Part shown: piece after piece, positions 6,631-61,708 of the stretch
Numbering within the stretch: position 1 is the first letter of the stretch
Layout: each line of letters begins with the position of its first letter
Source of the DNA: Thermoanaerobaculia bacterium
Lineage (GTDB): Bacteria; Acidobacteriota; Thermoanaerobaculia; Gp7-AA8
Assembly (NCBI GenBank): GCA_038244815.1
Contig: JBBRTB010000016.1
Span: 29,056-93,055, forward strand
DNA length: 64,000 nt
Reading direction: 5' to 3'
Notes under the pieces: model-generated
The model's input: only the letters and a program-made list of their open reading frames with translations
Databases searched by the model: none
Told to the model about the DNA's origin: nothing
Program-made: the position numbers and the translations under genes

Positions 6631-7668
6631 ATGCAGATACCAGCCAATCTGTGGCCGGCGCTCTTTTCGGCGTCGACGGGCAAAGCCTGGCCGCCCCTCA
6701 CGGCCGAGGAGATCGAGACTTTCATCCGAGACTGCGCGGCGGAAAGCCTCCTTCCGATCCTGCAGACGGATGATTCCATCCCCGCAGCGATCCAGGAGGC
6801 GCGCAAGCCCTTCGCGGCGCTGTTGCCCCTCCAGAAGCAGAGGACGCAGATCCTGGTCCGGGCTCTCCAGCGCATCGGCGAGATCCTCGAGGGCGAAGAC
6901 TTCGCATTGCTGAAAGGCGCCGACTACGCATTCCGGCTCTATCCCCAGCCCTACCTTCGTCCGATGTCCGACATCGATCTGCTCGTCCCCGCGGCGCGAA
7001 TGCCCGAAGTCTGCCGCCGCTTCTTCGAGGCGGGAATGCAGCAGCACTTCCCCGCCGGGACGGCATCACGGCTCAAGAGTCATCATGAGACGGTCTTCAC
7101 GCTGAACGGCGTGTTGATCGAACCGCATCACTCGTTCATCCAGCGGGCCCGTCACAGAATCGACTACGACGGAATCTGGAGGCGTCGCATCGCCTTTCAC
7201 CCCGCGGGCGTGCGCACGTTCCGGCTCGCTGATGCTGATGCGCTGATCTATCAGACCCTGCGGATGGCCACCGATCAATTCAACGAGCCGCTGATCCACT
7301 ACCTCGATTTCTATCTGCTGCTGCATCGCTTTGAGGGCGACCTCGAGACTCTGGCCGGACGGGCGCGGGAATACCGTACCGAGCGGGCGCTCTACGCCGC
7401 CTTCCGCCAGCTCACACGACTCTTTCCGGAGCTCCATCCACGCACCGATGCTCTGCTCGAGAGTCTTCTCAGTCCCTCCGTTCGCCGCCACCTCGACGAG
7501 CGGGTGCTGCCGGCGCGATTCATCTATCGGCGCATCGCCAGGCGCGAACAGTTGTGGCGCAAGTTCAACCTGATGGACGGCTACCGCGAGCGCCTCGGAT
7601 TTCTCTTCTACTGGGCGTATGCGGCCGTGGCCGGCCGGTTCGTGCGGTCTACTCGCCCGGCATCATGA
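6631..7668 (+). CDS. Nucleotidyltransferase-family protein (NTP_transf_5-like)
   Basis: The MSDIDLLV motif and the overall pattern resemble the uncharacterised nucleotidyltransferase family. The gene is divergent from the formyltransferase with a 60 nt spacer. Confidence 0.45.
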   Translation: MQIPANLWPALFSASTGKAWPPLTAEEIETFIRDCAAESLLPILQTDDSIPAAIQEARKPFAALLPLQKQRTQILVRALQRIGEILEGEDFALLKGADYAFRLYPQPYLRPMSDIDLLVPAARMPEVCRRFFEAGMQQHFPAGTASRLKSHHETVFTLNGVLIEPHHSFIQRARHRIDYDGIWRRRIAFHPAGVRTFRLADADALIYQTLRMATDQFNEPLIHYLDFYLLLHRFEGDLETLAGRAREYRTERALYAAFRQLTRLFPELHPRTDALLESLLSPSVRRHLDERVLPARFIYRRIARREQLWRKFNLMDGYRERLGFLFYWAYAAVAGRFVRSTRPAS

Positions 7669-8301: not shown

Positions 8302-8377
8302 TGGAGCCGTTGACCGGACTTGAACCGGTGACCTGCTGATTACGAATCAGCTGCTCTACCAACTGAGCTACAACGGC
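8302..8377 (-). tRNA. tRNA-Thr (anticodon CGU)
   Basis: The reverse complement GCCGTTGTAGCTCAGTTGGTAGAGCAGCTGATTCGTAATCAGCAGGTCACCGGTTCAAGTCCGGTCAACGGCTCCA folds into a canonical cloverleaf. The anticodon loop is TTCGTAA. CCA is encoded. Confidence 0.85.
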
Positions 8378-8739: not shown

Positions 8740-8816
8740 GCGCCCTTAGCTCAATTGGACAGAGCATCAGACTTCGGATCTGAGGGTTGGGGGTTCGAGC
8801 CCCTCAGGGCGCACCA
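8740..8816 (+). tRNA. tRNA-Arg (anticodon UCG)
   Basis: GCGCCCTTAGCTCAATTGGACAGAGCATCAGACTTCGGATCTGAGGGTTGGGGGTTCGAGCCCCTCAGGGCGCACCA has a 7-bp acceptor stem. The anticodon loop is CTTCGGA. CCA is encoded. Confidence 0.85.
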
Positions 8817-9609: not shown

Positions 9610-9834
9610 GTGGCCGTGATGCCACTGACACCTTCTGAATTGCGCCTGTTCGAGGAGGCCTGCGCGAACCGCGCGAATCAGGGCGTGGCCAGCCTCCTCA
9701 ACGTGTTCGGGGCCGCCACCGCCTCGCAGATTCTCGAGCAGATCGCCGCCGCTCCGGTGACGATTCGAAAAGAGTTCATGGAACACGTGCGCAGAGCCAT
9801 CGAGGAACAGCGGCGGTTTCGCCCGAAGGGATGA
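9610..9834 (+). CDS. Hypothetical small protein
   Basis: 74-aa ORF. Its stop overlaps the start of the open frame of the downstream membrane protein. No family was recognised. Confidence 0.25.
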   Translation: MAVMPLTPSELRLFEEACANRANQGVASLLNVFGAATASQILEQIAAAPVTIRKEFMEHVRRAIEEQRRFRPKG

Positions 9835-10066
9835 GTCTTCGCCGCGTGCTACGATCCGTCGCCTGACACGCTCGGAACGCCTCACGCTCAGCGCATGCGC
9901 CGTCGTCTCACTGGCCTTACGATGCGTCGCCTTTTCCCGCTACCGCTTCGACTCGGACGAGCCCCAGCACCTTCATGTCGCGTGGGGCTGGACTGCCGGC
10001 CTCCTGCCGTATCGCGACTACTTCGATAACCACGCGCCTCTGTTTCAACTGCTCACGGCGCCCCTG

Positions 10067-11473: not shown

Positions 11474-12161
11474 TGTAGGCCGCCTGCTCGGAAGCGAGGA
11501 ACACGACGGCGTAGGCGACGTCGTCGGGCGTGCCCAGGCGCCTCAGGGCGATGTGCTCTTCTAGCTTGCCCTTCGCCTCGTCGGTCATGGCGTCGGTCAT
11601 CGACGTCTGAATGAATCCCGGTGCCACGGCATTCACGGTCACGTTGCGCGATCCGATCTCGAGCGCCAGAGCCTTCGTGAATCCGATGAGCGCCGCTTTC
11701 GAAGCCGCATAGTTCACCTGGCCGGCGTTGCCCATCATCCCGACGACCGAGGAGATGTTGATCACGCGGCCCCATCGGGCCCGGATCATTTTCTTCACCA
11801 CTTCCTGTGTGATGTTGAACGCCGAGTCGAGATTCGTGCGCATCACGCTCGACCACGCCTCCGGCTTCATGCGAATGAACAGGTCGTCCGCGGTGATACC
11901 GGCGTTGTTGACGAGGATGTCGATACCGCGCTCCTCCTGCAGTTTCCTGATGCGCTCGCGGACGTCGGCACCGGTGATATCCAGCTCGACGGCGGTGGCG
12001 TTGCTGCCGATGGCGCTGGCCACCTGCTGCACGCGCTCGAGACTCCGCGCCGCCACGAGAACGTGCGCGCCGGTCTCGCCGAGCCGCCTGGCGATGGACT
12101 CGCCAATGCCTCGCGACGCGCCGGTGACGAGCGCCGTTTTCCCGCTGAGATCGATCTTCAT
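11430..12161 (-). CDS. fabG: 3-oxoacyl-[ACP] reductase
   Basis: SDR family. TGASRGIG Rossmann motif and the YAASKAAL catalytic motif. 243 aa. Overlaps the fabD stop. Confidence 0.85.
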   Translation of the reverse strand: MKIDLSGKTALVTGASRGIGESIARRLGETGAHVLVAARSLERVQQVASAIGSNATAVELDITGADVRERIRKLQEERGIDILVNNAGITADDLFIRMKPEAWSSVMRTNLDSAFNITQEVVKKMIRARWGRVINISSVVGMMGNAGQVNYAASKAALIGFTKALALEIGSRNVTVNAVAPGFIQTSMTDAMTDEAKGKLEEHIALRRLGTPDDVAYAVVFLASEQAAYITGTVLNVSGGLLT

Positions 12162-15207: not shown

Positions 15208-16458
15208 CTATTTCGCCACGCGTACCCGTAATTCCTCGGTGGCGGCATTCACCGAGTGCGCGGCCTCCAGCGACCGCGCCGAGGACAACCAATCGATCCA
15301 GCGCCGGAGGTCGCGCGCCGAGCGGTAGAGGCGCGGTGCGATGAGACGCAACCCGGTGTTGTCGCCGAGCCGCTTGAGGATTGGGGCGGCTCGCTGCGGA
15401 TCGAGACGCACCGACCAGTCATTGGACAGCCACGAGGCGTTGGCGAACGCCTCGGCCGAATAGCGGCCCATGCTCTCGTTGTCGAACGAGACCAGCAGTT
15501 CGCTGCCTTTTCTTCGAATCTCGCCGAACAGGCGCACCGCCGGTTCGATCCTGCTGATGACCTCCTCGTTCTGTTCGGTGGCGTTCGCCACGATGAGGCC
15601 GTCGGGGCGCGGCATCAGCGTTCCCGCGTTCACGTCATAGAGGACGATCGTGCCGCCATCGTCGAGAAGACGAGAAACCTTCGACATGAGCAGACGGTCG
15701 AGATCGCTGACGAACCGGGGCGGATGGCGGAACGTCGCCGCGAGCAGCGCGCCCTCGGGGAACCGGGGCCTGACCGCGGGTTGAGGTTCCGAGGTCTGAG
15801 GTCCGCGGTCCGGGCTCTCAACTCTGGCACTCAAGCTCGTCAGATTGAGGTCTTCGGCTCCAATCTGCACGGTCGTCACCACGGGACGGGGCATCGGCGG
15901 AAATCCGTTCGACTCCGGCCCCTGCTGGACGACCACCGCGTCCGCGGAGGGAAGCCCGTTGGCCACGGCCAGGATTCGATCGAGACGGGACGCACCGAGA
16001 GGCTCGCCGGCGGCAGGATTGATGAGGAGCGTGCCGGCGCTGACGCGGGCGTCGAGGCCCGACCCGAGCATCAGATATACGCGGACGATTCCGGCGCGCA
16101 GCGGATCGAGATGAATGGCGTAGCTGGTCCGCTTTGCAGCGCGCCACATCACCAGATCGGCGTCCCCGATCATCCAGGGGCGGGGAACCTGCGGCTTGTC
16201 GATCCATTCGAGGATGGGGTCGCGCGTGAGGGGATTCGCGATCAGCCTGGCCCGAACGGCCGAAGCAGCGGGGATGAGCGCGAACGTCTCGGCGTTCGCC
16301 GGGACGGCGGCCAGAAGATCGAGTTGGGCGGGCGTGAGCGGAAAGTGCACGCCGCCGCTCGCCGCCGGCACCGCCGTGCTCAGATAGATCACCACCGCGG
16401 CCAGGGCTACGGCCACAGCTACGATGAGGGTCAGGATGACGATCGTGAACTTCCGCAC
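15208..16458 (-). CDS. Hypothetical N-terminally membrane-anchored protein
   Basis: 416 aa with one N-terminal TM helix. Divergent from the GT4 genes. No family was recognised. Confidence 0.45.
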   Translation of the reverse strand: MRKFTIVILTLIVAVAVALAAVVIYLSTAVPAASGGVHFPLTPAQLDLLAAVPANAETFALIPAASAVRARLIANPLTRDPILEWIDKPQVPRPWMIGDADLVMWRAAKRTSYAIHLDPLRAGIVRVYLMLGSGLDARVSAGTLLINPAAGEPLGASRLDRILAVANGLPSADAVVVQQGPESNGFPPMPRPVVTTVQIGAEDLNLTSLSARVESPDRGPQTSEPQPAVRPRFPEGALLAATFRHPPRFVSDLDRLLMSKVSRLLDDGGTIVLYDVNAGTLMPRPDGLIVANATEQNEEVISRIEPAVRLFGEIRRKGSELLVSFDNESMGRYSAEAFANASWLSNDWSVRLDPQRAAPILKRLGDNTGLRLIAPRLYRSARDLRRWIDWLSSARSLEAAHSVNAATEELRVRVAK

Positions 16459-16560
16459 CTGTTACTATCCGCCTCCGTGATTCTGCCGACTGTCGGCACG
16501 GTCGTTCACACCCTGGGCCACGCATTCGCGCAGCGCATCTCCCGCGCCAGGCGCGCCGCC

Positions 16561-17679
16561 GTGTCGCGCCGCCGTCCGCTCAGGATCGGCTTCGACATCC
16601 GTCCTTTCTACGAGCCTTTGACCGGCGTGGGCTGGTATCTCTATCACCTTCTGCATGAGATCGCCCGTGACGATGAGGTGGAGATGGTCTTGTTCGGCGA
16701 TGCCCGCATCACCGATGAGGGTCCCCATCTTCACGCCGCCCTGCCCGCGGAGGCACGCCTCTTGTCGTTCGATCTGCGCGGACAGCCACGGTCACGTCTG
16801 GCCCGGCCTCTGACCGCCGCCGCGTATGTGGCCTGGATGGAGCTGGCGGATTGCGACGTGGTGTTCGGCGCGAATTACTTTCTGCCGCGACTGATGGGAG
16901 CGATCGCCCGGCGGCGCGTCATCACCATCCACGATCTGACGTACAAGCGTTTCCCGGAGCTGCTGCAGAAGGAGACGCTCGACAACCTGGAGCGGCAGAT
17001 GACGCGTGAGATCGGGCTGGCCGACGCCATCATCTGCGTGTCGGAGTCGACACGGCGCGACCTGCTGGCGTACTACCAGGTGGACCCGAGGCGCGTGCAC
17101 GCCATTCATTCAGGGCTGGCCACGCTCGAGAAGCCCTGGCCCGTTCCGGGCCTGCCGGAGCGCTACATCCTGTTCGTGAGCACGATCGAGCCGAGGAAAA
17201 ATCTCGACGTGCTGCTCGACGCGTTCGAGGCCATCGGTGACCAGTACAGCGGAGATCTCGTCGTCGCCGGCCGCATGGGCTGGAAATCGGAGCAGACGGC
17301 GCGCCGGCTGCGTGGCCGGCGGATCATGCATCTCGACTATCTTCCTCCCGCCGAGCTGGCCACCGTCTATCAGAACGCCGAGGTGTTCGTGTTCCCGTCG
17401 ATCTATGAGGGATTCGGGTTCCCGCTGCTCGAGGCCATGGCGCAGGGCGTGCCGACGATCGCCGCGCGCAGCTCCTCGCTTCCCGAAATCGGCGGCGACG
17501 CCACGCTCTTCTTTGACCCGCACGATGCGCGGGAACTGGCGGCGGCCTTGCGCCGCGTGACCACGGATCCGGTGCTGCGCCGCGACCTCATCGCGCGCGG
17601 CCGCGAGCGCGCGGCGCACTTCCGCTGGGATGTGGCAGCACAGGAGACGCTGCGGGTGATTCGCAGCGTCTCCTTCTGA
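16561..17679 (+). CDS. Glycosyltransferase family 4 (GT-B, Glycos_transf_1)
   Basis: GTG start. C-terminal EGFGFPLLEAMAQGVP motif. Confidence 0.75.
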   Translation: MSRRRPLRIGFDIRPFYEPLTGVGWYLYHLLHEIARDDEVEMVLFGDARITDEGPHLHAALPAEARLLSFDLRGQPRSRLARPLTAAAYVAWMELADCDVVFGANYFLPRLMGAIARRRVITIHDLTYKRFPELLQKETLDNLERQMTREIGLADAIICVSESTRRDLLAYYQVDPRRVHAIHSGLATLEKPWPVPGLPERYILFVSTIEPRKNLDVLLDAFEAIGDQYSGDLVVAGRMGWKSEQTARRLRGRRIMHLDYLPPAELATVYQNAEVFVFPSIYEGFGFPLLEAMAQGVPTIAARSSSLPEIGGDATLFFDPHDARELAAALRRVTTDPVLRRDLIARGRERAAHFRWDVAAQETLRVIRSVSF

Positions 17680-27498: not shown

Positions 27499-27520
27499 AG
27501 TAAATCCGAGATTCAGCCTC

Positions 27521-29197
27521 TCACATCTCCCAGATGACCGGCAGGATCAGCGGACGCCGTCCCATGGTCTTGCGGAAGTACCGCTTGAGCAGCGTCCGCA
27601 TTTTCTCCTGAAGCACGTCGGAGTCGCGCAACCCGTCGGTGGCACTTTCGGTAAGCATGCCAACAAGCTGCCGGCGCACTTCGTCCAGCACGTCCTGACT
27701 GGCGTCGACATGAACGAGGCCACGGGTGATGATCTCGGGGTCGCGGATCAGTCGTCCGCTCGAATCGATGGCGACGACGACGATGACGAAGCCATCCTCG
27801 GCCAGATGCTGGCGGTCGCGGACTACCACTTCCGGCACTTCCTCGGACTCCGCGTCGATAAAGACCTTGCCGTTCGCCACGCGCTCCTCGAGCACGCGCA
27901 CCTCGCCGGCGTCGATCTCCGCGACCTGCCCGTTGGTGATGACCACGCCGTGGGGCACGCCGACCGACTGGCCGAGACGGGCGTGATGAATGAGATGCCG
28001 CAGGGTGCCGTGAATGGGAACCAGGAACCTGGGCCTGGTCAGATTGAGCATCAGCTTCAGCTCCTCTTCGCAGGCGTGACCGGAGACATGCACGTCGGGA
28101 TGCTCGTGCGAGATCACCTCGGCACCGCGCCGGTAGAGATTGTCGATGACGTGGGCGATGGCCCGCTCGTTCCCGGGAATCGTGCGCGCGGAGATCACCA
28201 CCGTGTCCCCTTCCCCGATGACGATCTGCTTGTGCTCGCCGATGGCCATCCGCGATAACGCCGACGCCGGCTCGCCCTGTGTGCCTGTGGTCATGATGAC
28301 CAGTTTTCGGGGCTCGAGATCGGCCGAGCTGGCGCGCGCCTCGCGCGGGAACCTCAGGTAGCCGAGTCGCTCCGCGGTCTCGATGTTGTCGACGAGCGAG
28401 CGTCCGATCAGGAGAACCTTGCGGTTGTGCCGCCGTGCCGTGTCGATGACTTGCTGGACGCGGTGAATGTGCGACGCGAACGTGGTGGCGATGATGCGCC
28501 CATTGGCGTTCGCAAAAATCCGGTCGAGGGCGCCCCCGACGGTGCGCTCGGACGGGCAATGTCCGGCCACGAGGGCATTCGTCGAGTCGCTCATCAGCGC
28601 CAGCACCCCGCGCTCACCGTATTCGGCAAACCTGGCGATGTCGGTTGGTTTGGCATCGATCGGCGTGTGATCGATCTTGAAGTCGCCCGTGTGGACGATC
28701 GTGCCCGCCGGCGTGGTGATGGCCAGGCCGATAGCGTCGACGATCGAATGCGTGACACGGATGGCTTCGATGCGGAACGGCCCCGTCTCGACGACTTCAC
28801 GCGGCATGATCTCGCGCAGGTCGATGCCTTCGATGCCGAACTCCTCGAGCTTGTCGCGCACGAAGCCGAGCGTCAGCGGCATTCCGTAGACCGGCAGCGG
28901 AACACGCTCCACGAGGAACGGCAACGCCCCGATATGGTCCTCGTGACCGTGGGTCAGAAAAACGGCCCGGAACTTCACGGCGTTGTCGTAGATGTACGAC
29001 ATGTCCGGCACGATCACATCGACGCCGAGCGTGGCCGAGTCGGGGAACATCATGCCGCAGTCGACGACGATGGCTTCGCCGCCGTACTCGTAGATCATGC
29101 AGTTCATGCCGATCTCGCCGAGTCCGCCTAACGGGATGATTCTCAGAGGCGCCGGTTTGCCGGGTTGCCCGGTTTCTTGTGTGTAGGAATCCGACAT
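27521..29197 (-). CDS. rnj: Ribonuclease J (metallo-beta-lactamase / beta-CASP)
   Basis: Start taken at MSDSYTQ. HGHEDHIG metal-binding motif. About 558 aa. Confidence 0.85.
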   Translation of the reverse strand: MSDSYTQETGQPGKPAPLRIIPLGGLGEIGMNCMIYEYGGEAIVVDCGMMFPDSATLGVDVIVPDMSYIYDNAVKFRAVFLTHGHEDHIGALPFLVERVPLPVYGMPLTLGFVRDKLEEFGIEGIDLREIMPREVVETGPFRIEAIRVTHSIVDAIGLAITTPAGTIVHTGDFKIDHTPIDAKPTDIARFAEYGERGVLALMSDSTNALVAGHCPSERTVGGALDRIFANANGRIIATTFASHIHRVQQVIDTARRHNRKVLLIGRSLVDNIETAERLGYLRFPREARASSADLEPRKLVIMTTGTQGEPASALSRMAIGEHKQIVIGEGDTVVISARTIPGNERAIAHVIDNLYRRGAEVISHEHPDVHVSGHACEEELKLMLNLTRPRFLVPIHGTLRHLIHHARLGQSVGVPHGVVITNGQVAEIDAGEVRVLEERVANGKVFIDAESEEVPEVVVRDRQHLAEDGFVIVVVAIDSSGRLIRDPEIITRGLVHVDASQDVLDEVRRQLVGMLTESATDGLRDSDVLQEKMRTLLKRYFRKTMGRRPLILPVIWEM

Positions 29198-29242
29198 TGT
29201 CTTAGACCCGGCTACCCGGCAACCCGATAACCCGGCAACCCG
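29151..29242. repeat. Imperfect inverted octamer arrays (GGGTTGCC-type vs ACCCGGCA-type) bracketing the rnj start codon
   Basis: Direct reading. TTGCCGGGTT at 29157-29166 lies inside the first rnj codons. AACCCGGCAA occurs twice at 29213-29238 in the 5' leader. The rnj start codon (29195-29197) lies between them. Confidence 0.5.
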
Positions 29243-29258
29243 TTCACGCAGCAACCGG

Positions 29259-30551
29259 TCACGGATAGATCCGGTTCAACATGCGCGGATACGGAATGGT
29301 CTCGCGCAAGTGTGGCACGCCGCTCACCCACGCCACCATGCGCTCGATACCCATCCCGAATCCAGAGTGCGGGAAGGTGCCGTACTTGCGAACATCGAGA
29401 TACCACTGGAATTTGTCGATGGGCAGGTTGTGGTCCTTGATGCGCTGGAGCAGCAGATCGTGATCGTGAATGCGCTGGGAGCCGCCGATGATCTCGCCGT
29501 AGCCCTCGGGCGCGATCATGTCCAGACCGAGAACCACATCCGGATCCTTCGGATCGGGCTGCATGTAGAACGCTTTGATCGAGGTCGGATAGCGCGAGAT
29601 CATCACGGGCCGGTCGAATGAATTCGCGATGACCGTCTCCTCGTCGCCGCCGAAGTCGTCACCGAAGCTGACGTTCATGCCCTTCGTCTTCAGGAGCTCG
29701 ATGGCTTCGCGATAGGTGATGCGCGGGAACGGCTTCTTCACGTTCTCCAGCTTCGTCACGTCGCGCTCGAGCGTCTTCAGCTCTTCCTGGCAGCGATCGA
29801 GCGCGCGCCCGACCAGATATTCGACGAAGTCCTCGGCCAGTCTCTCGAGACCGTCGAACTCGAGAAAGGCCACCTCGGGCTCGACCATCCAGAACTCCAT
29901 GAGGTGCCGCCGCGTCTTCGATTTCTCGGCGCGGAACGTCGGCCCGAAGCAGTAGACGCGTCCGAACGCCGCGGCCGCGGGCTCGAGATAAAGCTGACCC
30001 GATTGCGACAGGTAGGCCTTCTCGCCGAAATAATCGGTCTCGAAGAGCGTGGACGTTCCCTCCGCTGCATTCGCGGTGAGGATCGGCGAGTCGATCAGGA
30101 CGAAGTCGCGGTCGTAGAAGAAATCGCGGATGCCCTTCTCGATCTCATTGCGCACGCGCAGCACGGCGTACTGCTTCGAGGAGCGCAGCCAGAGATGCCG
30201 CAGGTCCATGAGGAACGCCGTGCCGTGCTCTTTGGGCGTGATCGGATAGTCCTGGGCCAGCTGCATGACCTGGAACGACTCGACGCCGAGCTCCACCCCG
30301 CCCGGCGCGCGCTGCTCGGCACGCACGGTCCCGGTGACGCGCACGCTCGACTCCTGCGTCACTTCCTCGGCGGCCTTCCACGTCTCCTCGGAGACCTCCT
30401 TCCGGAAGACCACGCACTGCAGGTAGCCGCTGCCGTCGCGGATGATCGGAAACTGCAGCTTCCCCGAGCTGCGCTTGTTGTAAAGCCAGCCGTCGATGGT
30501 GACCGTTTCGCCGATGTGCTGCGGGAGCTCCTTGATGCGGACAGAGGACAT
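29259..30551 (-). CDS. asnS: Asparagine--tRNA ligase (class II). An archaeal-type AspRS is not excluded.
   Basis: KRSSGKLQF anticodon-binding region. [21 protein letters not shown] motif 2 and [10 protein letters not shown] motif 3. Start taken at MSSVRIKEL. Confidence 0.75.
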
Positions 30552-30586
30552 AAGGCGGCGGATTATAGCGGCCCTCATTCCGCGCG

Positions 30587-38921: not shown

Positions 38922-40250
38922 ATGACCGGCAATCTCTTTGGCGATGCGGACAGCCGCGACGCCCCCGAAACTCCACGAGGGGATGCCCCCCTTCCGGAGC
39001 GTCTCCGCCCGAAATCGCTGGCCGACGTGATCGGGCTGGAGGAGATCCTCGGGCCGGGACGTTTTCTGCGCAATGCCATCGAGAGCGATCGCATCCCCTC
39101 GATGATCTTCTGGGGGCCGCCGGGATCGGGCAAGACCACGCTGGCGCGGATCATCGCCGGCACGACGCGCGCGCGATTCGTTCAATTCTCCGCGACCAGC
39201 ACGTCGATCAAGGACATCAAGACCCTGATGGAAGAGGCGCGCAAATCACGGCAACTGCGCGGATCGAAGACGATCGTCTTCATTGATGAAATCCACCGGT
39301 TCAACAAAGCGCAACAGGATGCGTTTCTGGGGTACGTCGAGTCGGGCGACATCACCCTCATCGGAGCCACCACGGAGAATCCGTCGTTCGAGGTGAACTC
39401 GGCCCTTCTGTCACGCAGCAAAGTGGTGGTCATCCCGGCGCTGGAACGCGAACAGGTCATCACCATCCTTCATCGCGCCATCGACGATCCGAGCGTCAGC
39501 CAATACGGAATCGAGATTCTGCCGGACGCGCTCGACTTCATCGCCGCTACTTCCGCGGGCGATGCGCGACAGGCGCTGAATTCACTGCAGCTCGTCGTGG
39601 AGACGGCCACGAAGGAAGACGGGCCCATCGACGCCCCGAAGATCAGGACGATCCTGCAGCGCCGCTCCCTGATGTATGACAAATCGGGCGACGAGCACTT
39701 CAACATCATCTCGGCGCTCCACAAGTCGGTGCGCAACGGCGATGCCGATGCCGCCGTGTACTGGCTGGTGCGCATGCTCGAGGGGGGCGAAGACCCGCTC
39801 TACATCGCCCGGCGCATGGTGCGTGCGGCATCGGAGGACGTCGGCAACGCCGACCCGCAGGCTCTGGTCTTCGCCATCGCCGTCCAGCAGACCGTTCATT
39901 TCCTGGGCATGCCCGAGGCCGGAGTCGCGCTCGCCCAACTCGTCACGTACCTGGCGGCGGCGCCGAAATCCAACGCGGCGTACGTGGGCTACGGCGAAGC
40001 GGTGACCGAGGTGCGCCAGGGTGACAACCCTCCCGTGCCGCTGCACATCCGCAACGCACCCACGCGTCTCATGAAGGACCTTGGCTACGGCCAGGGATAC
40101 AAATACGCCCACGACTTCGAGGATCAGACCGCGGCGATGGACTGCCTGCCCGATGCATTACGGGATCGCCGGTTTTACGAACCGAAGGATGCCGGATTCG
40201 AGCGCGAGATGCGCGAGAGGCTGGAGCGAATGCGGAAGGCGCGGAAATGA
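38922..40250 (+). CDS. rarA: Replication-associated recombination protein A (AAA+ ATPase)
   Basis: Walker A GPPGSGKTT, sensor motifs and the MgsA C-terminal domain. 442 aa. Confidence 0.85.
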   Translation: MTGNLFGDADSRDAPETPRGDAPLPERLRPKSLADVIGLEEILGPGRFLRNAIESDRIPSMIFWGPPGSGKTTLARIIAGTTRARFVQFSATSTSIKDIKTLMEEARKSRQLRGSKTIVFIDEIHRFNKAQQDAFLGYVESGDITLIGATTENPSFEVNSALLSRSKVVVIPALEREQVITILHRAIDDPSVSQYGIEILPDALDFIAATSAGDARQALNSLQLVVETATKEDGPIDAPKIRTILQRRSLMYDKSGDEHFNIISALHKSVRNGDADAAVYWLVRMLEGGEDPLYIARRMVRAASEDVGNADPQALVFAIAVQQTVHFLGMPEAGVALAQLVTYLAAAPKSNAAYVGYGEAVTEVRQGDNPPVPLHIRNAPTRLMKDLGYGQGYKYAHDFEDQTAAMDCLPDALRDRRFYEPKDAGFEREMRERLERMRKARK

Positions 40251-40450
40251 AAATGCAAAATGCAAAATGCAAAATGCAGAATCAGGGTCGAGCGAATGCG
40301 GAAGGCGCGGGACTGAGAAATCTTGAATGAAGAATCGGCCGTCGCCGTGATCGTGATTTCTTAATTCGAAATTCGAAATTCACTCCGACAACGGCTCAGA
40401 GCAGATACCAAATGCTTTTTTGCATTCTGCATTTTGCATTTTGCATTTCG
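40249..40450. repeat. Composite structured repeat region: (AAAATGC)x4 and an inverted (GCATTTT)x3 flank about 135 nt that include a duplicated rarA 3' end
   Basis: Direct reading. 40250-40282 holds AAAATGC tandem copies. 40418-40448 holds the reverse-complement array. GAGCGAATGCGGAAGGCGCGG occurs at 40222 and again at 40289. CGAAATTC and TTCACTCCGA are duplicated. Confidence 0.5.
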
Positions 40451-40460
40451 AATTCTGCCT

Positions 40461-40865
40461 TCACTCCGAATACGCGTTCGCCTTCCTCTTGATCACCGCC
40501 GGCTTCCGGTCCTCGCCCACATTTACATAAACCACGGTCGCTTCGGTCACGACGACCCGTTTCTCCGGATCGTTGCCGCGGATGGCCTCACAGGTCACCT
40601 TGACGGTGATCGAGGTCGTGCCGATGCGTACGGTCTCGGTCCAGAAGGAGATGAGATCGCCGACGAAGACGGGCTCGTGAAAGACGACCTTGTCCATCGA
40701 CACGGTGACCATGAAGCGGGAACCCTGCCGGCGCGCTTCGATCGCGCCGGCCTGGTCGATGTAGGAGAGGATGACGCCGCCGAAGATGGTGCCGTGGGCG
40801 TTGGTGTCGCGCGGCATCATGAGCACGCGAATGGCGGGCTCATCCCACTTCGAAACGGCTTCCAT
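40461..40865 (-). CDS. Acyl-CoA thioesterase (hotdog fold, YciA/4HBT-like)
   Basis: 134 aa. Core DTNAHGTIFGGVILSYID motif. Confidence 0.75.
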   Translation of the reverse strand: MEAVSKWDEPAIRVLMMPRDTNAHGTIFGGVILSYIDQAGAIEARRQGSRFMVTVSMDKVVFHEPVFVGDLISFWTETVRIGTTSITVKVTCEAIRGNDPEKRVVVTEATVVYVNVGEDRKPAVIKRKANAYSE

Positions 40866-44397: not shown

Positions 44398-44600
44398 CGT
44401 TCTCGGTGCTGGGTGCTCGGTGCTCGGTGCTGGGTGCTAGGTGCCTCGGTGCTGGGTGCTTCGGTTCGCCCACCGCAAAACCGAGAACCGAGAACCGAGG
44501 GACCGCGGATCAAGGACCGACGACCGAGGACCGATGACCGAGCATCCAGCACCGAGCACCGAGCACCCAGCACCCAGCACCCAGCACCCAGCACCGACTG
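44398..44600. repeat. Inverted heptamer-array element: (GGTGCTS)n ... (CCGAGAA / GACCGAN)n ... (SAGCACC)n
   Basis: Direct reading. 44401-44460 holds about 8 tandem GGTGCT[GC] units. 44546-44596 holds the reverse-complement array CAGCACC/GAGCACC. Between them lies a second repeat (CCGAGAA x3). It sits in the intergenic spacer before mreB. Confidence 0.55.
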
Positions 44601-44664
44601 TATAGTTCGCGGGGCAAACGTTTTGCACCACGTCTTCGCGACTACGCTACCGAGATCCACCTGA

Positions 44665-50202: not shown

Positions 50203-50568
50203 CTACGACCGGCGGCCCACGACCTTATCGAGATCCCGGCGCTCTTTCTTGGTCGGCCTGCCCGCTCCGCGGTCCCGAAACGAGCTCGCCGCGGCAGGCT
50301 GGCTCACCGGCGCCGGGCTCTCGTCGATGTAGGCCGTCTTCCCGGCCTCCTTCGAGAGCTGTCCCTCGGGCAGGACGACGGCGATCACCCGCCGGAAACG
50401 GTCGTTCAGCAGGAACTCGACGACATCATCTTCCCGGACCGGCGCGGACGGCTTGACCCGCTGGCCGTTGATCTTCACGTGCCCGCCGCGGCAGGCTTCA
50501 GCCGCCTCTTCCCGGTGCTTGAAGAGACAGACGAGCTTGAGCCAGTGATCGATCCGATGACGTTCCAT
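50203..50568 (-). CDS. S4-domain RNA-binding protein (Hsp15/HslR-like)
   Basis: Start taken at MERHRIDHWLK (S4 motif). The longer ORF extension is encoded by the heptamer repeat and is rejected. Confidence 0.6.
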   Translation of the reverse strand: MERHRIDHWLKLVCLFKHREEAAEACRGGHVKINGQRVKPSAPVREDDVVEFLLNDRFRRVIAVVLPEGQLSKEAGKTAYIDESPAPVSQPAAASSFRDRGAGRPTKKERRDLDKVVGRRS

Positions 50569-50570
50569 TT

Positions 50571-50653
50571 GCGAGGCCTCGGGCCTCAGGCCTCGGGCCA
50601 CAGGCCTCAGACCCTCCCCTTTTTCCGAGGCCCGAGGCCCGAAGCCCGAGGCC
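50571..50653. repeat. Inverted heptamer-array hairpin: (GGCCTCR)x5 - CCCTCCCCTTTTTCC - (GAGGCCC)x4
   Basis: Direct reading. The arms are exact reverse complements. The 17-nt loop carries a T-tract. It lies in the divergent spacer between the S4 gene and hupB. Confidence 0.55.
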
Positions 50654-50667
50654 TGTATAATCAGCCC

Positions 50668-50937
50668 ATGATCAAGGCCGATATCGTCAACAAAGTCGCG
50701 GAGTCATCGGATATTTCGCGGGTGAAGGCGGCTCAGGCAGTGGACACGGTCATCGAAGGACTGCGGAACGCGCTCGCCCGCGGACAGCGCATCGAACTGC
50801 GCGGGTTCGGTGTCTTTCAGGTGAAACAGCGCAAGAAGGGCATCGGACGCAACCCCAAGACCGGCGTCGAGGTGAAGATTCCGCCGGGCAACACCATCCG
50901 CTTCAAGCCGGGCAAAGAGCTCCGCAATCTTCTGTAA
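50668..50937 (+). CDS. hupB: HU/IHF-family nucleoid-associated DNA-binding protein
   Basis: RGFGVFQVKQR...GRNPKTG arm motif. 89 aa. TATAAT lies 6 nt before the ATG with no Shine-Dalgarno sequence. Confidence 0.8.
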   Translation: MIKADIVNKVAESSDISRVKAAQAVDTVIEGLRNALARGQRIELRGFGVFQVKQRKKGIGRNPKTGVEVKIPPGNTIRFKPGKELRNLL

Positions 50938-58165: not shown

Positions 58166-59263
58166 TTAATTTCTCTGAATACTTTCTATGGAATCGACAA
58201 TCTTTTTTGTAGCTTCCGGTGTGGCCAGTCTCCCCGCTGCCAGACCCATCTGCCGCGTCCGCTCGGGGTTGCCGATGATCTCGTTGATGGCCGCGCCGAG
58301 TTTCTCCGGCGTCAGCTCCGCTTCCGTGATCACGATGCCTCCTCCCGCCCTCTCCACCGCGCGGGCGTTCAGCTCCTGGTGATTGTTCGTGGCCGCGGCG
58401 AACGGCACGAAGATGGCCGGCCGGCCGATCGCGGCCAGCTCGCCGATGGTCATCGCTCCGGCCCGGCTCACCACGAGGTCCGCGGCCGCGATCTCGTCGA
58501 CGATGGGATCGAGGTACGGCACCACCCGCGCCTCCGGAAATGCTCCCGAGGTGCGATACGCGGCCTGAACCTTCTGCAGCTCTCCCGGCCCGGTCTGATG
58601 AACGATGTGCAGACGGTCTTTCAGGCGCGAGAGGAATAGCAGGGCGCCGGTCATGGCGTCGTTGAGCGTGCGTGAGCCCTGCGAGCCGCCGAAGATCAGC
58701 AGGCGAGGCCTCGGGCCTCGGGCCTCGGGCCTCGGCTGCAGGAACTCCGCGCGAACCGGATTCCCGGTGACCACCGCATCCGGACGCTTCATCCGGGTGG
58801 CCGCCTCCGCGAAGGCGACGTCGACTCCCTTCACGAATCTTGCGAGCAGGCGGTTCGTGAGACCGGGAAACGCGTTCTGCTCGTGGATGATCGTCGGTAC
58901 GCCGCGCAGCATCGCCGCGAGCAGCACCGGGCCGGATGAATAGCCACCGACGCCGAGAACGACGTCCGGCTGGTACCTGCCGACGAGGCGAAAGGCCTGC
59001 GCGAAGCCGAGAGGCAGGCGGACGATGTTGCGGATGAGATCGAGTCCGGCCTTTCCCTTGAGCCCGCCGACCGAGATGAACTCGACCGGGAAGCCCGCCT
59101 TCGGAACGATGGTCTTCTCGAGGCCGCGCTCGGTGCCGACGAAGACGGCCCGGCGGTTCTTGTCGCGCGCGACGTACTCGCGAGCGATGGCGATGGCCGG
59201 GTAGATGTGTCCCCCCGTCCCTCCGCCGCCGACCATCAGTGTCTTCACGCCCGCCTCGCCCAT
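58166..59263 (-). CDS. murG: UDP-GlcNAc--undecaprenyl-PP-MurNAc-pentapeptide GlcNAc transferase
   Basis: GGTGGHIYPAIAIA N-terminal motif and the FGGSQGS motif. The linker contains the in-frame (GGCCTCG)4 array. Confidence 0.85.
   Translation of the reverse strand: MGEAGVKTLMVGGGGTGGHIYPAIAIAREYVARDKNRRAVFVGTERGLEKTIVPKAGFPVEFISVGGLKGKAGLDLIRNIVRLPLGFAQAFRLVGRYQPDVVLGVGGYSSGPVLLAAMLRGVPTIIHEQNAFPGLTNRLLARFVKGVDVAFAEAATRMKRPDAVVTGNPVRAEFLQPRPEARGPRPRLLIFGGSQGSRTLNDAMTGALLFLSRLKDRLHIVHQTGPGELQKVQAAYRTSGAFPEARVVPYLDPIVDEIAAADLVVSRAGAMTIGELAAIGRPAIFVPFAAATNNHQELNARAVERAGGGIVITEAELTPEKLGAAINEIIGNPERTRQMGLAAGRLATPEATKKIVDSIESIQRN
58705..58735. repeat. In-frame (GGCCTCG)x4 heptamer array inside murG (encodes PRPEARGPRP in the inter-domain linker)
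   Basis: Direct reading. The unit is the same as in the 50571-50653 element. Confidence 0.5.
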
Positions 59264-60368: not shown

Positions 60369-61708
60369 GATTTCGGGTTGCCGGATTGCCGGGTTGCCGG
60401 GTTGCCGGACAGTTCTCTGACCAGTTGTTCGAAGTGTTCGCCGCGATACTCGAAGTTTCTGTATTGATCGAAGCTCGCGCATGCCGGCGACAACAGCACG
60501 GTGTCACCCGGTTTGGCGTGCTTCGAAGCCCAGTCGATGGCGTGCTCCATGTCGCCCGCGGGAACGATCGTCGCCGCACCCTCCAGCGCCTCCTCGATCC
60601 GATGCGCGGCCTTGCCGATGGTGATGACGCCGCGCGTTTTCTCCTTGACGAGCTCGCGCATGCGCTCGAATTCCCCCGCTTTGTCCTTGCCGCCGAGGAT
60701 CAGCCAGACGCTCGATGGCGGAAAGCTCTCCAGCGACTTGAGCGTGGCGTCTACGTTCGTCCCTTTGGAGTCGTTGATCCAGCGCACGCCGTCGCGCTCG
60801 CGCACGAGAACCATGCGGTGGGGCAAGCCGGCGAACGACGCGAACGCGGTCTGCACGGAAAGGTCATCGATGCCGGCGGCCCGCGCCGCCAGCCAGGCGG
60901 CCAGCGCGTTCTCAGCGTTCGCGGTGCCCTCCAGCCTCAGCGACGAGCGGGGAATGCGCCGCTGGTTGCCATCGACGCGAATGACCATCTCGTTGCCGTC
61001 GAGGTACGCGCCTTCGTTCACCTTCTGCGACGACGAGAACTGCCATAGTCGCGCGCGCGAATCGGGATGCCCCAACGATGCGTTCACGATCGCGAAGTCC
61101 ACCGGCTGTTGGTTGCGGAAGATGCGGTACTTCGCCGCCGAGTAGGCGTCGAACGTCGGATAGCGATCCATGTGATCGGGCGTGACGTTGAGCAGCAGCG
61201 CGATGTGAGCGTGGAACTTATCGACCGTTTCGAGCTGAAACGAGGACAGCTCGAGCACGTAGGCCCTTTGCTTTTCGAGATCGATCGCGGCGGTGAGCGG
61301 CTCGCCGATGTTGCCGGCCACGATGGGCTGCCTGCCGGCCACGCGCAGGATCTCGCCGATGAGCGCGGTCGTGGTCGACTTGCCGTTCGATCCGGTGACG
61401 GCGATGACCGAGCCTTGCAGATGACGCCAGGCCAGCTCGATCTCGGAGATGATCGGAATCGATCTCGACGCGGCGACCTGCAGCAACGGGATGGTCGTGG
61501 GCACGCCGGGACTGAGCACGATCGTGCTGACGGCATCGAGCAGGATCTCGTCCTGCCGTCCGAACGATCGTTGCACGCGCTCGTCGAGCGGCTGCGGCAA
61601 CGCCGGCGAATCGCTGCTGTCGATGAGACAGACATCCTCGCCGCGGCCGGCCAGAAGATTCGCCGCCGCCACACCCGACTTCCCAGCACCCACCACCAGA
61701 ATTCCCAT
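60365..61708 (-). CDS. murD: UDP-N-acetylmuramoylalanine--D-glutamate ligase
   Basis: GAGKSG N-terminal motif and GSNGKSTT Mur-ligase motif. The C-terminal tail GNPATRQSGNPKS is encoded by the TTGCCGGR array. Confidence 0.85.
   Translation of the reverse strand: MGILVVGAGKSGVAAANLLAGRGEDVCLIDSSDSPALPQPLDERVQRSFGRQDEILLDAVSTIVLSPGVPTTIPLLQVAASRSIPIISEIELAWRHLQGSVIAVTGSNGKSTTTALIGEILRVAGRQPIVAGNIGEPLTAAIDLEKQRAYVLELSSFQLETVDKFHAHIALLLNVTPDHMDRYPTFDAYSAAKYRIFRNQQPVDFAIVNASLGHPDSRARLWQFSSSQKVNEGAYLDGNEMVIRVDGNQRRIPRSSLRLEGTANAENALAAWLAARAAGIDDLSVQTAFASFAGLPHRMVLVRERDGVRWINDSKGTNVDATLKSLESFPPSSVWLILGGKDKAGEFERMRELVKEKTRGVITIGKAAHRIEEALEGAATIVPAGDMEHAIDWASKHAKPGDTVLLSPACASFDQYRNFEYRGEHFEQLVRELSGNPATRQSGNPKS
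60376..60410. repeat. (TTGCCGGR)x4 octamer array spanning the murD 3' end and the ftsW start region
   Basis: Direct reading. The reverse-complement unit (ACCCGGCA) recurs at 29206-29242. Confidence 0.5.

Follow-up and report, generated by a model that had tools for sequence, protein, structure and literature searches.

Opposed pairs of short tandem arrays at gene boundaries have been described previously in Xanthomonas and Geobacter, yet they have never been explained. In Xanthomonas campestris and X. citri, Rehm et al. (2015, PMC4692102) reported convergent pairs of arrays of the heptamer GGGAATC. These arrays typically comprise ~4 units, are intergenic in 89–93% of cases and lie ~28 nt from the end of the upstream ORF; each genome contains 70–75 close pairs on opposite strands, which are potential stem-loops or cruciforms, and formation of G-quadruplexes (G4) by the arrays was observed in vitro (PMC4692102). 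For Geobacter metallireducens, Aklujkar et al. (2009, PMC2700814) described "putative global regulator binding sites" of classes 1–3, which are pairs of opposite-strand sites, each formed by 3–5 tandem octa- or heptanucleotides, with variable spacing. The units are GTTGCTYN in class 1, TCTCCGTS(Y) in class 2 and MTYCTGA in class 3. The pairs are located at gene junctions, also inside operons (nifD–nifK, proB–proA, trpC–trpB2), many of them are split by the IS110-family element ISGme8, and binding of IHF/HU was proposed (PMC2700814). Heptamer direct repeats of the TAACTGA type and the cyanobacterial STRR are found upstream of start codons (MacGregor 2015, PMC4679880). The TAACTGA repeats keep one unit across phyla, include 1 inverted case in 170 sets, and have been proposed as sites for RNA-binding regulators (PMC4679880).

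Structured elements of other kinds also have to be considered. Autoregulatory structures of RNase genes include hp2 in the 5′-UTR of E. coli rne, the rnc and pnp leaders, which are cut by RNase III, and that of B. subtilis rny. REP, BIME and REPIN elements are dispersed intergenic hairpin repeats with roles in mRNA 3′-end protection, attenuation and binding of gyrase or IHF; REPs are fixed, imperfect palindromes (~20–40 nt) whose end, GTAG or CGTC, is conserved. SD–AUG arrangements bridged by a hairpin are found in genes 38 and 25 of phage T4.

The element analysed here belongs to a 64-kb stretch of Thermoanaerobaculia DNA (the window, from now on), in which rnj, the gene for ribonuclease J, lies on the minus strand, so mRNA sense is minus. 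As in the paired arrays of Xanthomonas and Geobacter, its units are of 7–8 nt, arranged head to tail, with an inverted partner and at a gene boundary; a genome in those genera shares one or a few unit consensus sequences, whereas the window has at least 4 unrelated units. Like those of Xanthomonas, the tandem units, also of 7 nt, occur in pairs near the upstream ORF end, and their length and sequence vary among close species at given junctions. Instead of one dominant G-rich unit per genome, studied as a G4 former, there are many unrelated units of 7–8 nt. Moreover, a start codon in the loop, a translated arm, covariation of the arms at orthologous sites and the phylum, Acidobacteriota, go beyond the Xanthomonas case. 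The class 1 unit of Geobacter is the rnj unit of two relatives, L086 and L163, and is near the window's GTTGCCGG, but start codons in the loop, translated arms and covariation were not reported for Geobacter, and the IS association is absent in the copies studied here. With REPs, the element has in common that hairpins lie at operon junctions or between convergent genes, are dispensable at each site and vary among strains, whereas its arms are tandem units of 7–8 nt with varying sequence and no GTAG/CGTC tag. The TAACTGA/STRR repeats are similar in being heptamers at gene boundaries, often a few nt before the start or overlapping the upstream stop, and in having forward units with stops in all three frames, as in many 5′ arms here; however, they are nearly always in a single orientation and not in inverted pairs. 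As in the autoregulatory RNase leaders, there is secondary structure in the 5′ region of the mRNA of a ribonuclease, although those leaders are gene-specific, conserved in orthologs and recognised by the enzyme, while the present element looks like a generic repeat and is missing from most near-identical rnj genes. The likeness to T4 hairpin bridging concerns the rnj–uppP junction and not the rnj start, and is suggested by geometry only.

Array Pair at the asnS–rnj Junction

The positions of the element, its neighboring genes and the related arrays are collected in Table 1. Tandem Repeats Finder detected two period-8 arrays with 82–87% matches, at 29151–29174 (3.0 copies, + strand unit GCCGGGTT) and at 29206–29242 (4.6 copies, unit ACCCGGCA), the latter with a degenerate period-16 extension up to 29256. 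In a repeat search the arms appeared as inverted repeats with 23 nt at 83%, 21 nt at 86% and 14 nt at 93% complementarity, and 32–40 nt separate the arms of 21–23 nt (83–86% complementary). Both searches confirm what the initial annotation had noticed, namely that opposed octamer arrays bracket the rnj start codon. Its strand labels were right for the + strand text; leader and early coding region are indeed complementary to each other, and a loop of 32 nt contains the start codon.

Table 1. Features of the asnS–rnj junction and related arrays in the 64-kb window
Feature	Position	Strand	Description
rnj–uppP spacer	27499..27520	-	GAGGCTGAATCTCGGATTTACT; collapsed heptamer-palindrome relic
rnj, ribonuclease J	27521..29197	-	558 aa; Pfam RNase_J_b_CASP, RNase_J_C, Lactamase_B, RMMBL
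3′ arm	29151..29174	-	mRNA sense ACCGGGCA ACCCGGCA AACCGGCG
Loop	29175..29205	-	~31–32 nt, CUAAGACAAUGUCGGAUUCCUACACACAAGAA; rnj start codon and codons 1–8
rnj start codon ATG	29195..29197	-	frame check; 558-aa product in public collections has this start
5′ arm	29206..29258	-	octamers CGGGTTGC / GGGTTGCC (mRNA sense); fills the asnS–rnj spacer
Class II aminoacyl-tRNA synthetase (AsnS/AspS type), upstream	29259..30578	-	Pfam tRNA-synt_2, tRNA_anti-codon; stop TGA 29261–29259
Heptamer pair AAATGCA / TGCATTT	40241..40462	.	136-nt spacer; between convergent rarA/mgsA and 4HBT thioesterase genes
Heptamer pair CTCGGTG (×8.9) / ACCGAGC (×16.7)	44399..44597	+	between FecR-like gene (stop 44393) and mreB (ATG 44683)
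Heptamer pair AGGCCTC / CCGAGGC	50574..50655	.	between divergent S4-domain and HU/IHF-like genes
murD octamer array	60374..60408	-	CCGGCAAC ×4.4 (mRNA sense), unit as at rnj; no inverted partner

Since rnj is on the minus strand, the GGGUUGCC array is the mRNA leader, and it starts 1 nt past the asnS stop. The segment of this 5′ arm that pairs well is 29206–29242, with degenerate units continuing up to 1 nt after that stop, and a regular-expression match gave a (G3N5)x4 G-quadruplex motif within it. There is no clear Shine–Dalgarno (SD) sequence in the loop of the window; the homologous loops of relatives L161 and L166 have GGGAG or GGAG at the equivalent place. The rnj ATG occupies 29197–29195 and does not begin at 29196, and independent gene callers choose the identical start for the 558-aa protein MSDSYTQETGQPGKPAPLRIIPLGG. 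The 3′ array, of the GGCAACCC type, forms rnj codons 8–16 (..TGQPGKPA; residues 8/9–16). According to the N-termini of homologues, its product is a non-conserved tail preceding the conserved LRIIPLGG core.

The window has 8 matches to the decamer TTGCCGGGTT with ≤1 mismatch, whereas 3.0 would be expected; the 92-nt rnj element contains four of them and the murD array (60378–60403) three more. An independent assembly, L167, is identical to the window across the 220 nt compared, and therefore the rnj arrays are not an assembly artefact. In an Rfam scan of the whole window only two tRNAs reached the gathering score, with no hit at the rnj element. Between 28900 and 29600 no terminator-like site was found on the minus strand, where the 3′ arm is followed by GCGCCUCUGAGAAUC with no U-tract; a search for a promoter or intrinsic terminator in the spacer gave a single hit, a terminator-like site on the + strand (antisense), within the 3′ arm.

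Conservation and Turnover Among Relatives

With the RNase J loci of relatives anchored by tblastn, 11 asnS–rnj junctions, those of the window and 10 relatives, were found to have a pair of inverted arrays whose loop, of 21–46 nt, includes the start codon. The unit is GGGTTGCC in the window, GGGTCGCT in L161 and L166, GGTTGCGC in L085 and L004, GTTGCTNN in L086 and L163, and GGTTGCCC/GGTCACCC in L164; heptamers are used in L087 (CGGTTGT), L081 (ACGATGA) and L162 (GGATTGA). The array register starts 1 nt past the asnS TGA in the window and 0–4 nt past it in the relatives. The initial annotation had named lack of complementarity between leader and early coding region in relatives as the observation that would speak against its hairpin; instead, all 11 junctions keep the pairing, with unit changes occurring jointly in both arms. 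An example is given by L166 and L161, whose loop (ATG TCN GAY) is common with the window and whose unit differs at two positions, in both arms and in a compensatory manner. An alignment-free comparison of leader/early-coding complementarity within and across genomes, performed on six junctions, gave 17.2 for the same genome versus 7.5 across genomes, and only the identity permutation (1/720) attains the observed sum. On the same six junctions, MAFFT/RNAalifold gave a consensus of −1.7 kcal/mol with 5 compensatory pairs, from a poor alignment in which the repeat periods differ.

The arrays sit directly past stop codons and both arms always carry one common unit, while the units turn over far faster than the flanking genes. 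Moreover, copies are gained, collapsed or lost among near-identical genomes. In the cluster of RNase J proteins with ≥90% identity to that of the window, 8 of 10 members have no array-coded extension, and therefore the element is dispensable for rnj; the extension is also missing in roughly 70 of 120 cluster representatives of the clade. The junction carries the element across lineages in which RNase J is just 74–88% identical. Its persistence or recurrence at asnS–rnj, together with the start codon always being in the loop, could reflect selection for an rnj-related function. In most lineages the core GGTTGC is kept, which is found too within the GTTGCTYN arrays of Geobacter; this hints at sequence-specific recognition over pure structure.

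Other Members of the Family

Each member of the family consists of two opposed arrays, built from a 7- or 8-nt unit and located at a gene junction. The window contains 4 such inverted pairs, rnj included, and 3 single arrays. Pairs occur between convergent genes and between divergent genes as well, and the 5′ array of the pair at 40241..40462 starts where rarA ends, at its stop codon. The units are of at least 4 unrelated types (GGGTTGCC, CTCGGTG, AGGCCTC and AAATGCA), and one unit is common to two loci, rnj and murD. The murD array encodes the C-terminal tail of MurD, ..SGNPATRQSGNPKS*, and ends at the ATGA overlap of the murD stop and the ftsW start. Inverted pairs were found at 11 of 12 clade loci, whereas 148 further RNase J loci (887 kb) had none (Fisher p = 4e-16).

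The rnj–uppP junction is a second conserved site, with heptamer pairs in 13 relatives; most relatives have the palindrome there, and the window keeps its collapsed relic. Different junctions within one genome can have the unit, and even the loop, in common: the asnS–rnj and rnj–uppP hairpins of L162 have identical unit and loop, the asnS–rnj copy being tandemly duplicated, and L163 uses GTTGCTNN at both junctions. The rnj–uppP units AAATTGA, GAATGTT and GGATTGA resemble the 3′ end of rnj, GAAATGTGA. Many 5′ arms carry stop codons in all three frames (GGATTGA, AAATTGA, ACGATGA, GTTGCTGA/TAG/TAA). At rnj–uppP the SD in the final codons of rnj (GGGAGATGTGA) remains 5′ of the palindrome, which is followed by the ATG after 1–25 nt; in L163 and L087 both the stop and the start codon touch the base of the stem. 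From this geometry alone, folding would restore a TGAATG-like arrangement as in the array-free relatives.

Two other origins or roles for the pairs were considered and rejected. Extended −10-like sequences (TGTATAAT / TGTATAGT) follow two of the window pairs, which would fit a role linked to promoters, and nothing comparable is present at the rnj arrays of the window or of the relatives. As for a REPIN/RAYT origin, L163 and L164 have a RAYT-like Y1_Tnp gene next to asnS, but it is flanked by the REP-like GGCGGCGGGACGCCGCC and not by tandem arrays.

Folding and Accessibility of the Start Region

The AUG is in the loop, as the initial annotation proposed. Judged by folding energy only, the window copy is weak: a stretch of 133 nt gave a z-score of −1.05 and one of 112 nt gave −1.86; in the latter case 5 of 200 shuffles are equally stable and the centroid structure is empty. 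Thus, as modelled, the window rnj stem would be only marginally more stable than shuffled sequence.

Pairing of the arms had been expected to occlude initiation. The predictions do not support this possibility, because the probability of being unpaired over −15..+12 is about 0.45–0.5 in array-bearing and array-free relatives alike, and across the 11 junctions the AUG, plus the SD where present, is inside the loop of 21–46 nt. The composition of the stems was also analysed. In 16 stems there are 429 Watson–Crick pairs, 6 G·U, 12 A·C and 24 other mismatches, so the mismatches of the sense strand show no enrichment in G·U over A·C. Folding energies of sense and antisense strands are not consistently biased in either direction. 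The idea that the helix is kept as a wobble-tolerant RNA was dropped, as both comparisons lack a sense-strand signal.

Proposed Origin and Role

We think, with a probability of about 0.6, that the rnj element belongs, as a single copy, to a clade-specific family of tandem-repeat palindromes of Thermoanaerobaculia-type Acidobacteriota, and that it is a generic junction element maintained at the DNA level. The arrays would grow via replication slippage, seeded at the stop-codon region, and the complementarity of the arms would be kept by copying of DNA, through template switching or through conversion, ectopic or from arm to arm, and not by selection on a wobble-tolerant RNA helix. In the case of rnj, the inserted palindrome sits precisely between the stop codon of asnS and the conserved core of RNase J. 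As its loop supplies the rnj start, translation of the 3′ arm gives the protein a variable N-terminal tail, which is probably disordered. In the asnS–rnj transcript the arms would form a stem of ~20 bp in the window and 20–37 bp in relatives, flanking a roughly ribosome-sized loop that would present the AUG. The hairpin probably acts as generic operon punctuation, as a structural barrier or a substrate of double-strand RNases that would insulate rnj initiation from asnS. We would expect the element neither to block initiation nor to sense RNase J.

A bolder version of this scheme can be imagined, although we consider it rather unlikely as a whole. The palindromes would be self-propagating: they would nucleate at stops, homogenise their arms and hop between junctions by a dedicated DNA-level mechanism, and they would be tolerated or even used because the stem rejoins stop and start (or SD and AUG) across insertions of 60–110 nt. 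In this way they would donate starts and disordered tails to RNase J, MurD and MurG, and at rnj the stem, with a competing G4 in this genome, would set the output and uncouple it from asnS.

The consequence for rnj is deflationary, because the hairpin is real but appears to be a generic, dispensable repeat, and we advise against its annotation as a regulatory leader of RNase J. The family itself is of more interest. It offers an unusually clean natural case of concerted evolution of palindrome arms at orthologous sites, it includes non-triplet tandem repeats translated into variable tails of essential enzymes, and its insertions of 60–110 nt between stop codon, SD and start codon do not break the operons. 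In addition, the arrays of Xanthomonas and Geobacter can now be connected with those of a third phylum, and three ideas can be offered for them: seeding at stop codons, conversion of the arms at the DNA level and hairpin-bridged translational coupling. For annotation of these genomes, start calls and apparent low-complexity N-terminal extensions should be viewed as array by-products.

Alternative Explanations

The hairpin might instead be specific to rnj, tuning RNase J synthesis post-transcriptionally through 30S access, protection from 5′-exonucleases, or cleavage (RNase J feedback or RNase III cross-control), in line with the cis-regulatory device postulated in the initial annotation. We regard this as unlikely. 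The compensatory pairing around the rnj start in 11 genomes would suit such a device, and so would a further perfect hairpin of 13 bp (AACAAUGCGCAGC/GCUGCGCAUUGUU) over the second in-frame AUG of L087 and other long hairpins in the rnj leader of L084 and L082. Yet the same type of element is found at the uppP, mreB, murD/ftsW, rarA/thioesterase and S4/HU junctions, and 8 of 10 RNase J genes with ≥90% identity lack it, as does the majority of the clade representatives mentioned above. The postulated autoregulation has a precedent in RNases E, III, Y and PNPase, which act through structures in their own mRNAs, but in the papers examined on RNase autoregulation no report of RNase J autoregulation via its leader was found. 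The unchanged predicted accessibility of AUG and SD and the absence of G·U bias in the sense strand (6 against 12 A·C) do not favor it either.

Binding of a trans-acting factor to the arrays seems improbable to us as well. The putative binders would be IHF/HU, an unidentified global regulator or RNA-binding proteins of the S1/Csp/Csr type, and the inversion would serve dimeric or looping binding instead of a hairpin. The GGTTGC core in most lineages and its similarity to the Geobacter class 1 unit GTTGCTYN point to this reading, and so does the reuse of a unit by two loci, both in the window and in L163; moreover, the pair at 50574..50655 abuts the −10 box of the HU/IHF-like gene. It is difficult to reconcile, however, with the diversity of units within a single genome (GGGTTGCC, CTCGGTG, AGGCCTC, AAATGCA), and binding in Geobacter is itself a proposal only. 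Units change wholly between close relatives with the arms still complementary, which indicates structure or copying and not a fixed recognition sequence.

We give very little credit to the possibility that the element is a contingency locus, in which slipped-strand gain or loss of units would shift the rnj frame and switch RNase J off and on. Such phase variation could operate in principle, as neither unit length, 7 or 8 nt, is divisible by 3, the 3′ array is within the ORF (codons 8–16), and copy number and presence differ among close relatives; nevertheless, no sequenced copy departs from the frame, the two independent assemblies are identical, and a housekeeping RNase is an unlikely on/off target. 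Most family members are, besides, intergenic, where frame is irrelevant.

Still fainter is the case for a switch between G4 and hairpin, with the 5′ arm (GGGUUGCCGGGUUAUCGGGUUGCCGGGUAGCCGGG) forming a G4 upstream of the AUG, as RNA or non-template DNA, in competition with the stem. The window and L166 do contain a canonical (G3N5)x4 motif, and the GGGAATC arrays of Xanthomonas set an in vitro precedent, but the units of most relatives have GG or no G-runs (GGTTGCGC, GTTGCTNN, CGGTTGT, ACGATGA, GGATTGA). The potential for G4 formation is thus not conserved among the copies of the element.

A biologically meaningless coincidence of GC-rich sequence of low complexity, for which only the modest z-score of the window copy (−1.05 to −1.9) would speak, is refuted by the comparative data, given the local 10-mer enrichment, the Tandem Repeats Finder arrays on both sides, the recurrence of the architecture with covarying arms in 10 other genomes and the clade enrichment (p = 4e-16).

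Relics of the element were also seen at asnS–rnj, as TGATGGTTGAAAC in L083 and as a single unit (ACG GGC AAC) in L165, a genome that carries (AAGGATG)x3.4 at a different junction.

Structure of the rnj start region

The gene rnj lies on the minus strand (the region was inspected on both strands) and encodes a 558-aa ribonuclease J with beta-CASP, C-terminal, MBL and RMMBL domains; public gene calls concur with its ATG start. The stop codon of the upstream asnS, a class II tRNA synthetase gene of the Asn/Asp type, is 112 nt from the conserved RNase J core (LRIIPLGG). Two arrays of period 8 (4.6 and 3.0 copies by Tandem Repeats Finder) stand opposed across this interval and are recovered by an inverted-repeat search as inverted repeats of 21-23 nt with 83-86% complementarity. 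The initial annotation had thus described the structure correctly, including the start codon in the loop and a 3' arm in the early codons, which are codons 8-16 (TGQPGKPA). The 10-mer TTGCCGGGTT, with at most one mismatch, has 8 matches in the 64 kb against 3.0 expected, four at the rnj arrays and three in a second array at 60378-60403. Over the 220 nt compared, the window and an independent assembly do not differ.

In the RNA fold proposed as a check, the z-score is just -1.05 to -1.9, and the centroid structure is empty because many alternative pairing registers are open to the tandem arms. By thermodynamics alone, the window's rnj copy is unimpressive.

Features of the window (window coordinates) and array units at the asnS-rnj junctions; L-numbers denote relatives' RNase J loci
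Feature	Position or locus	Sequence or units	Remark
asnS terminal codon	29261-29259	TGA
rnj start codon	29197-29195	ATG	minus strand
rnj 5' arm		TGA C CGGTTGCT GCGTGAAC GGGTTGCC GGGTTATC GGGTTGCC GGGTAGCC GGGT	minus, mRNA sense
rnj loop		CTAAGACA ATG TCGGATTCCTACACACAAGAA	minus, mRNA sense
rnj 3' arm		ACCGGGCA ACCCGGCA AACCGGCG, then CCT CTG AGA ATC	minus, mRNA sense
asnS-rnj units	window	GGGTTGCC / GGCAACCC
asnS-rnj units	L161, L166	GGGTCGCT / AGCGACCC
asnS-rnj units	L085, L004	GGTTGCGC / GCGCAACC
asnS-rnj units	L086, L163	GTTGCTNN / NNAGCAAC
asnS-rnj units	L164	GGTTGCCC-GGTCACCC / GGGAGACC-GGGCAACC
asnS-rnj units	L087	CGGTTGT / ACAACCG	period 7
asnS-rnj units	L081	ACGATGA / TCATCGT	period 7
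asnS-rnj units	L162	GGATTGA / TCCTCAA	period 7
Inverted pair	40241-40462	AAATGCA / TGCATTT	between convergent rarA and thioesterase genes
Inverted pair	44399-44597	CTCGGTG / ACCGAGC	between FecR-like gene and mreB
Inverted pair	50574-50655	AGGCCTC / CCGAGGC	between divergent S4-domain and HU/IHF-like genes
Single array	60374-60408	CCGGCAAC x4.4	octamer identical to rnj's; no inverted partner
Single array	58707-58735	(CGAGGCC)x4, perfect	MurG-like gene; encodes PRPEARGPRPR, residue ~175
Single array	15774-15812	GAGGTCC-type	within 15256-17679 ORF
tRNA genes	8305-8377 (-), 8740-8813 (+)

The junction in relatives

RNase J protein scans of genome and metagenome collections yielded 12 close loci (73-81% identity), all others being at most 52% identical, and by this measure the window is placed among Thermoanaerobaculia-type Acidobacteriota. 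Additional close relatives were obtained via protein matches. Eleven asnS-rnj junctions have a common layout, formed by stop codon, 5' array, a loop of 21-46 nt with the start codon, 3' array and core, and their units vary. The complementarity maintained by compensatory change that the initial annotation proposed to look for in relatives is kept at these 11 junctions, and the case that would have spoken against it, a lack of such pairing in relatives, is clearly not what they show. In an alignment-free comparison of six of them, leader and early coding region score a mean of 17.2 within the same genome versus 7.5 across genomes, and the identity alone among 720 permutations attains the observed total. 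The RNase J proteins of L161 and L166 are 88% and at least 90% identical to the window's; the loop ATG TCN GAY is common to all three, and both arms are altered at matching unit positions, which at the sequence level is in-situ compensatory change. The array-coded N-terminal peptides are all different (QPGKPA, SNPATQQPSN, SSILNPQSSI, DNRQPTSDN, DRSSLIVPRSS and others); therefore, the constraint is on the nucleic acid and not on the protein.

Other hairpins occur in this region. A perfect 13-bp hairpin, AACAAUGCGCAGC-GGAAA-GCUGCGCAUUGUU, lies just 3' of the heptamer palindrome of L087 (~965-1000); in it the conserved LRIV codons are base-paired to a second AUG that is in frame. The rnj leaders of L084 (600-735) and L082 (~400-560) hold a different long hairpin lacking tandem repeats, with the common motif GCGAAGGATC...GATCCTTCGC...CTCAGGAT; it probably belongs to a further family of dispersed repeats.

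Further members of the family

Besides the rnj pair, the window contains three further inverted pairs of short tandem arrays, as well as single arrays. Taking all loci from the two scans, 11 of the 12 clade loci (67 kb) have inverted pairs of arrays with 7-8 nt units, whereas the 148 other RNase J loci (887 kb) have none (Fisher p = 4e-16). At the junction of rnj with the downstream uppP, 13 relatives' loci carry an inverted heptamer pair, with units such as AAATTGA, GAATTGA, GGATTGA, ATTGAAA, AATGCAG, AGTGCCC, CAGTGCC, TGAATGT, GAATTTC and GTTGCTNN; it is missing where the stop codon directly adjoins the start codon, and only a relic is left in the window. The array at 60374-60408 encodes the C-terminal tail of MurD (SGNPATRQSGNPKS*); its end lies in the ATGA by which murD and ftsW overlap. 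The arrays in the MurG-like gene and the 15256-17679 ORF are non-triplet repeats translated within proteins.

Several sites show additional traits. A perfect 21-nt direct duplication of the rarA 3' end, GAGCGAATGCGGAAGGCGCGG (40224-40244 and 40290-40310), flanks the 5' heptamer array there, and the old stop-codon context (..GGGACTGA) persists past the second copy; this has the look of a scar left on array insertion by target-site duplication or template switching. Directly after the 3' array upstream of the HU/IHF-like gene lies an extended -10-like TGTATAAT (50654-50670), whose TATAAT hexamer is 6 nt from the ATG (50668), which suggests a leaderless mRNA with the palindrome in place of a -35 box. 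A similar CTGTATAGT (44598-44606) follows the 44.4-kb arrays upstream of mreB. In the stretch 50568-50601, the S4-domain gene has two candidate start codons. With a start at GTG (50601), codons 1-11 (MARGLRPEASQ) would form one AGGCCTC palindrome arm with the SD AGGGGAGGG in the loop, a possible second start-in-loop case.

Turnover and level of maintenance

Among the best 120 RNase J cluster representatives (77-88% identity), ~45 have an array-coded extension and ~70 do not, and 8 of 10 members of the window protein's cluster (at least 90% identity) lack it. L165, one of the latter, starts with GTG ACG GGC AAC CTG, a single-unit relic; L083 retains TGATGGTTGAAAC. Hence rnj can do without the element, which is quickly gained, collapsed or lost. 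Its bearers are dispersed across the entire clade tree, compatible with an ancestral element that was lost many times or with repeated colonisation of the site. An rnj-specific or autoregulatory hairpin, the reading of the initial annotation, is thus unlikely: the structure itself was described correctly, but pairs occur at unrelated junctions and most close RNase J genes lack the extension, so that the functional reading is unsupported.

The 16 stems of known transcription direction hold 429 Watson-Crick pairs, 6 G.U, 12 A.C and 24 other mismatches. Folding energies of the two strands, sense and antisense, are not consistently biased, and pairs also occur between convergent and between divergent genes. 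Complementarity is therefore probably kept symmetrically at the DNA level; selection on a wobble-tolerant sense RNA helix would not produce this pattern. These sequence patterns argue for DNA-level copying or conversion between arms. Copying between loci is directly visible in L162, whose asnS-rnj and rnj-uppP palindromes are alike in unit and share near-identical loops (9830-10061; 11704-11806), the former being tandemly duplicated with start codon and first core codons, and in L163, with GTTGCTNN at both junctions. Many 5' arms contain TGA, TAG or TAA, rnj-uppP units resemble the rnj 3' end GAAATGTGA, and L165 has (AAGGATG)x3.4 (6895-6918), a unit of SD plus start codon, where a dynamin-like GTPase gene overlaps asnS. 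Together, they suggest that arrays were seeded by slippage at stop-codon regions.

Effect on translation start

The AUG lies within the loop in all 11 asnS-rnj cases, and so does any SD that is present (GGGAG in L161, GGAG in L166, AGGGGA in L004, AGGU in L081). The median loop of 32 nt is about the length of mRNA occupied by a 30S subunit. Occlusion of the initiation region, as initially proposed, is not supported: positions -15..+12 have a predicted unpaired probability of ~0.45-0.5 in relatives with arrays and in those without, and the arms are predicted to be more paired. No U-tract follows the rnj stem and no promoter-like site was found in the asnS-rnj spacer. The modelled stem would therefore frame the initiation region rather than bury it.

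At rnj-uppP, the SD within rnj's last codons remains 5' of the palindrome and the ATG comes after it; the base of the stem contacts the stop codon as well as the start codon in L163 and L087. On folding, the RNA would regain the TGAATG-like arrangement seen in relatives without arrays, which indirectly suggests that such RNAs indeed fold and that this is why the insertions are tolerated.

Interpretation and relation to known systems

We think, with a probability of about 0.6, that this is a clade-specific family of tandem-repeat palindromes that propagate and homogenise at the DNA level. At asnS-rnj, the loop would supply the start codon and the 3' arm the variable tail; any role in the transcript would be generic operon punctuation at most. 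That the arrays are sites for protein binding, the proposal made for Geobacter, is as improbable as the autoregulatory hairpin, and a phase-variable simple sequence repeat is more doubtful still. A G4/hairpin switch is slightly less credible again: a canonical (GGGN5)x4 motif lies on the mRNA-sense (minus) strand of the 5' arm (29206-29240), but beyond the window it occurs only in L166, being absent from L161 and L164. Chance is hardly conceivable.

Tandem arrays of 7-8 nt units, paired in inverted orientation at the ends of genes, have been noticed before, and by analogy two descriptions are closest. Xanthomonas GGGAATC heptamer arrays form 70-75 convergent pairs per genome, are 89-93% intergenic, lie ~28 nt from the upstream ORF and vary highly between species (PMC4692102). 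The class 1-3 paired sites of G. metallireducens are tandem octa- or heptanucleotides, found at junctions including nifD-nifK and proB-proA, often split by the IS110-family ISGme8 and proposed as putative IHF/HU binding sites; class 1, GTTGCTYN, equals the L086/L163 unit (PMC2700814). A looser parallel is offered by TAACTGA heptamers, repeated directly a short way upstream of start codons (PMC4679880). New here are a third phylum, many different units in one genome, both arms covarying in concert at orthologous sites, the start codon within the loop, the putative bridging of stop, SD and start, and arms translated as RNase J and MurD tails, with a single heptamer array translated in MurG.

Rfam has no family matching the element, the two tRNAs being the window's sole gathering-threshold hits. 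Membership in RNase autoregulatory leaders was rejected for lack of gene specificity and conservation, and in REP/REPIN because the arms lack the form of a fixed palindrome and another repeat flanks the RAYT-like genes of L163 and L164. These Y1_Tnp genes (186 aa; L163:7987-8547, L164:6223-6783) lie between the dynamin-like GTPase gene and asnS, with classical REP-like palindromes, GGCGGCGGGACGCCGCC and GCCGGCGGGGACGCCGGC, on both sides, unrelated to the tandem arrays.
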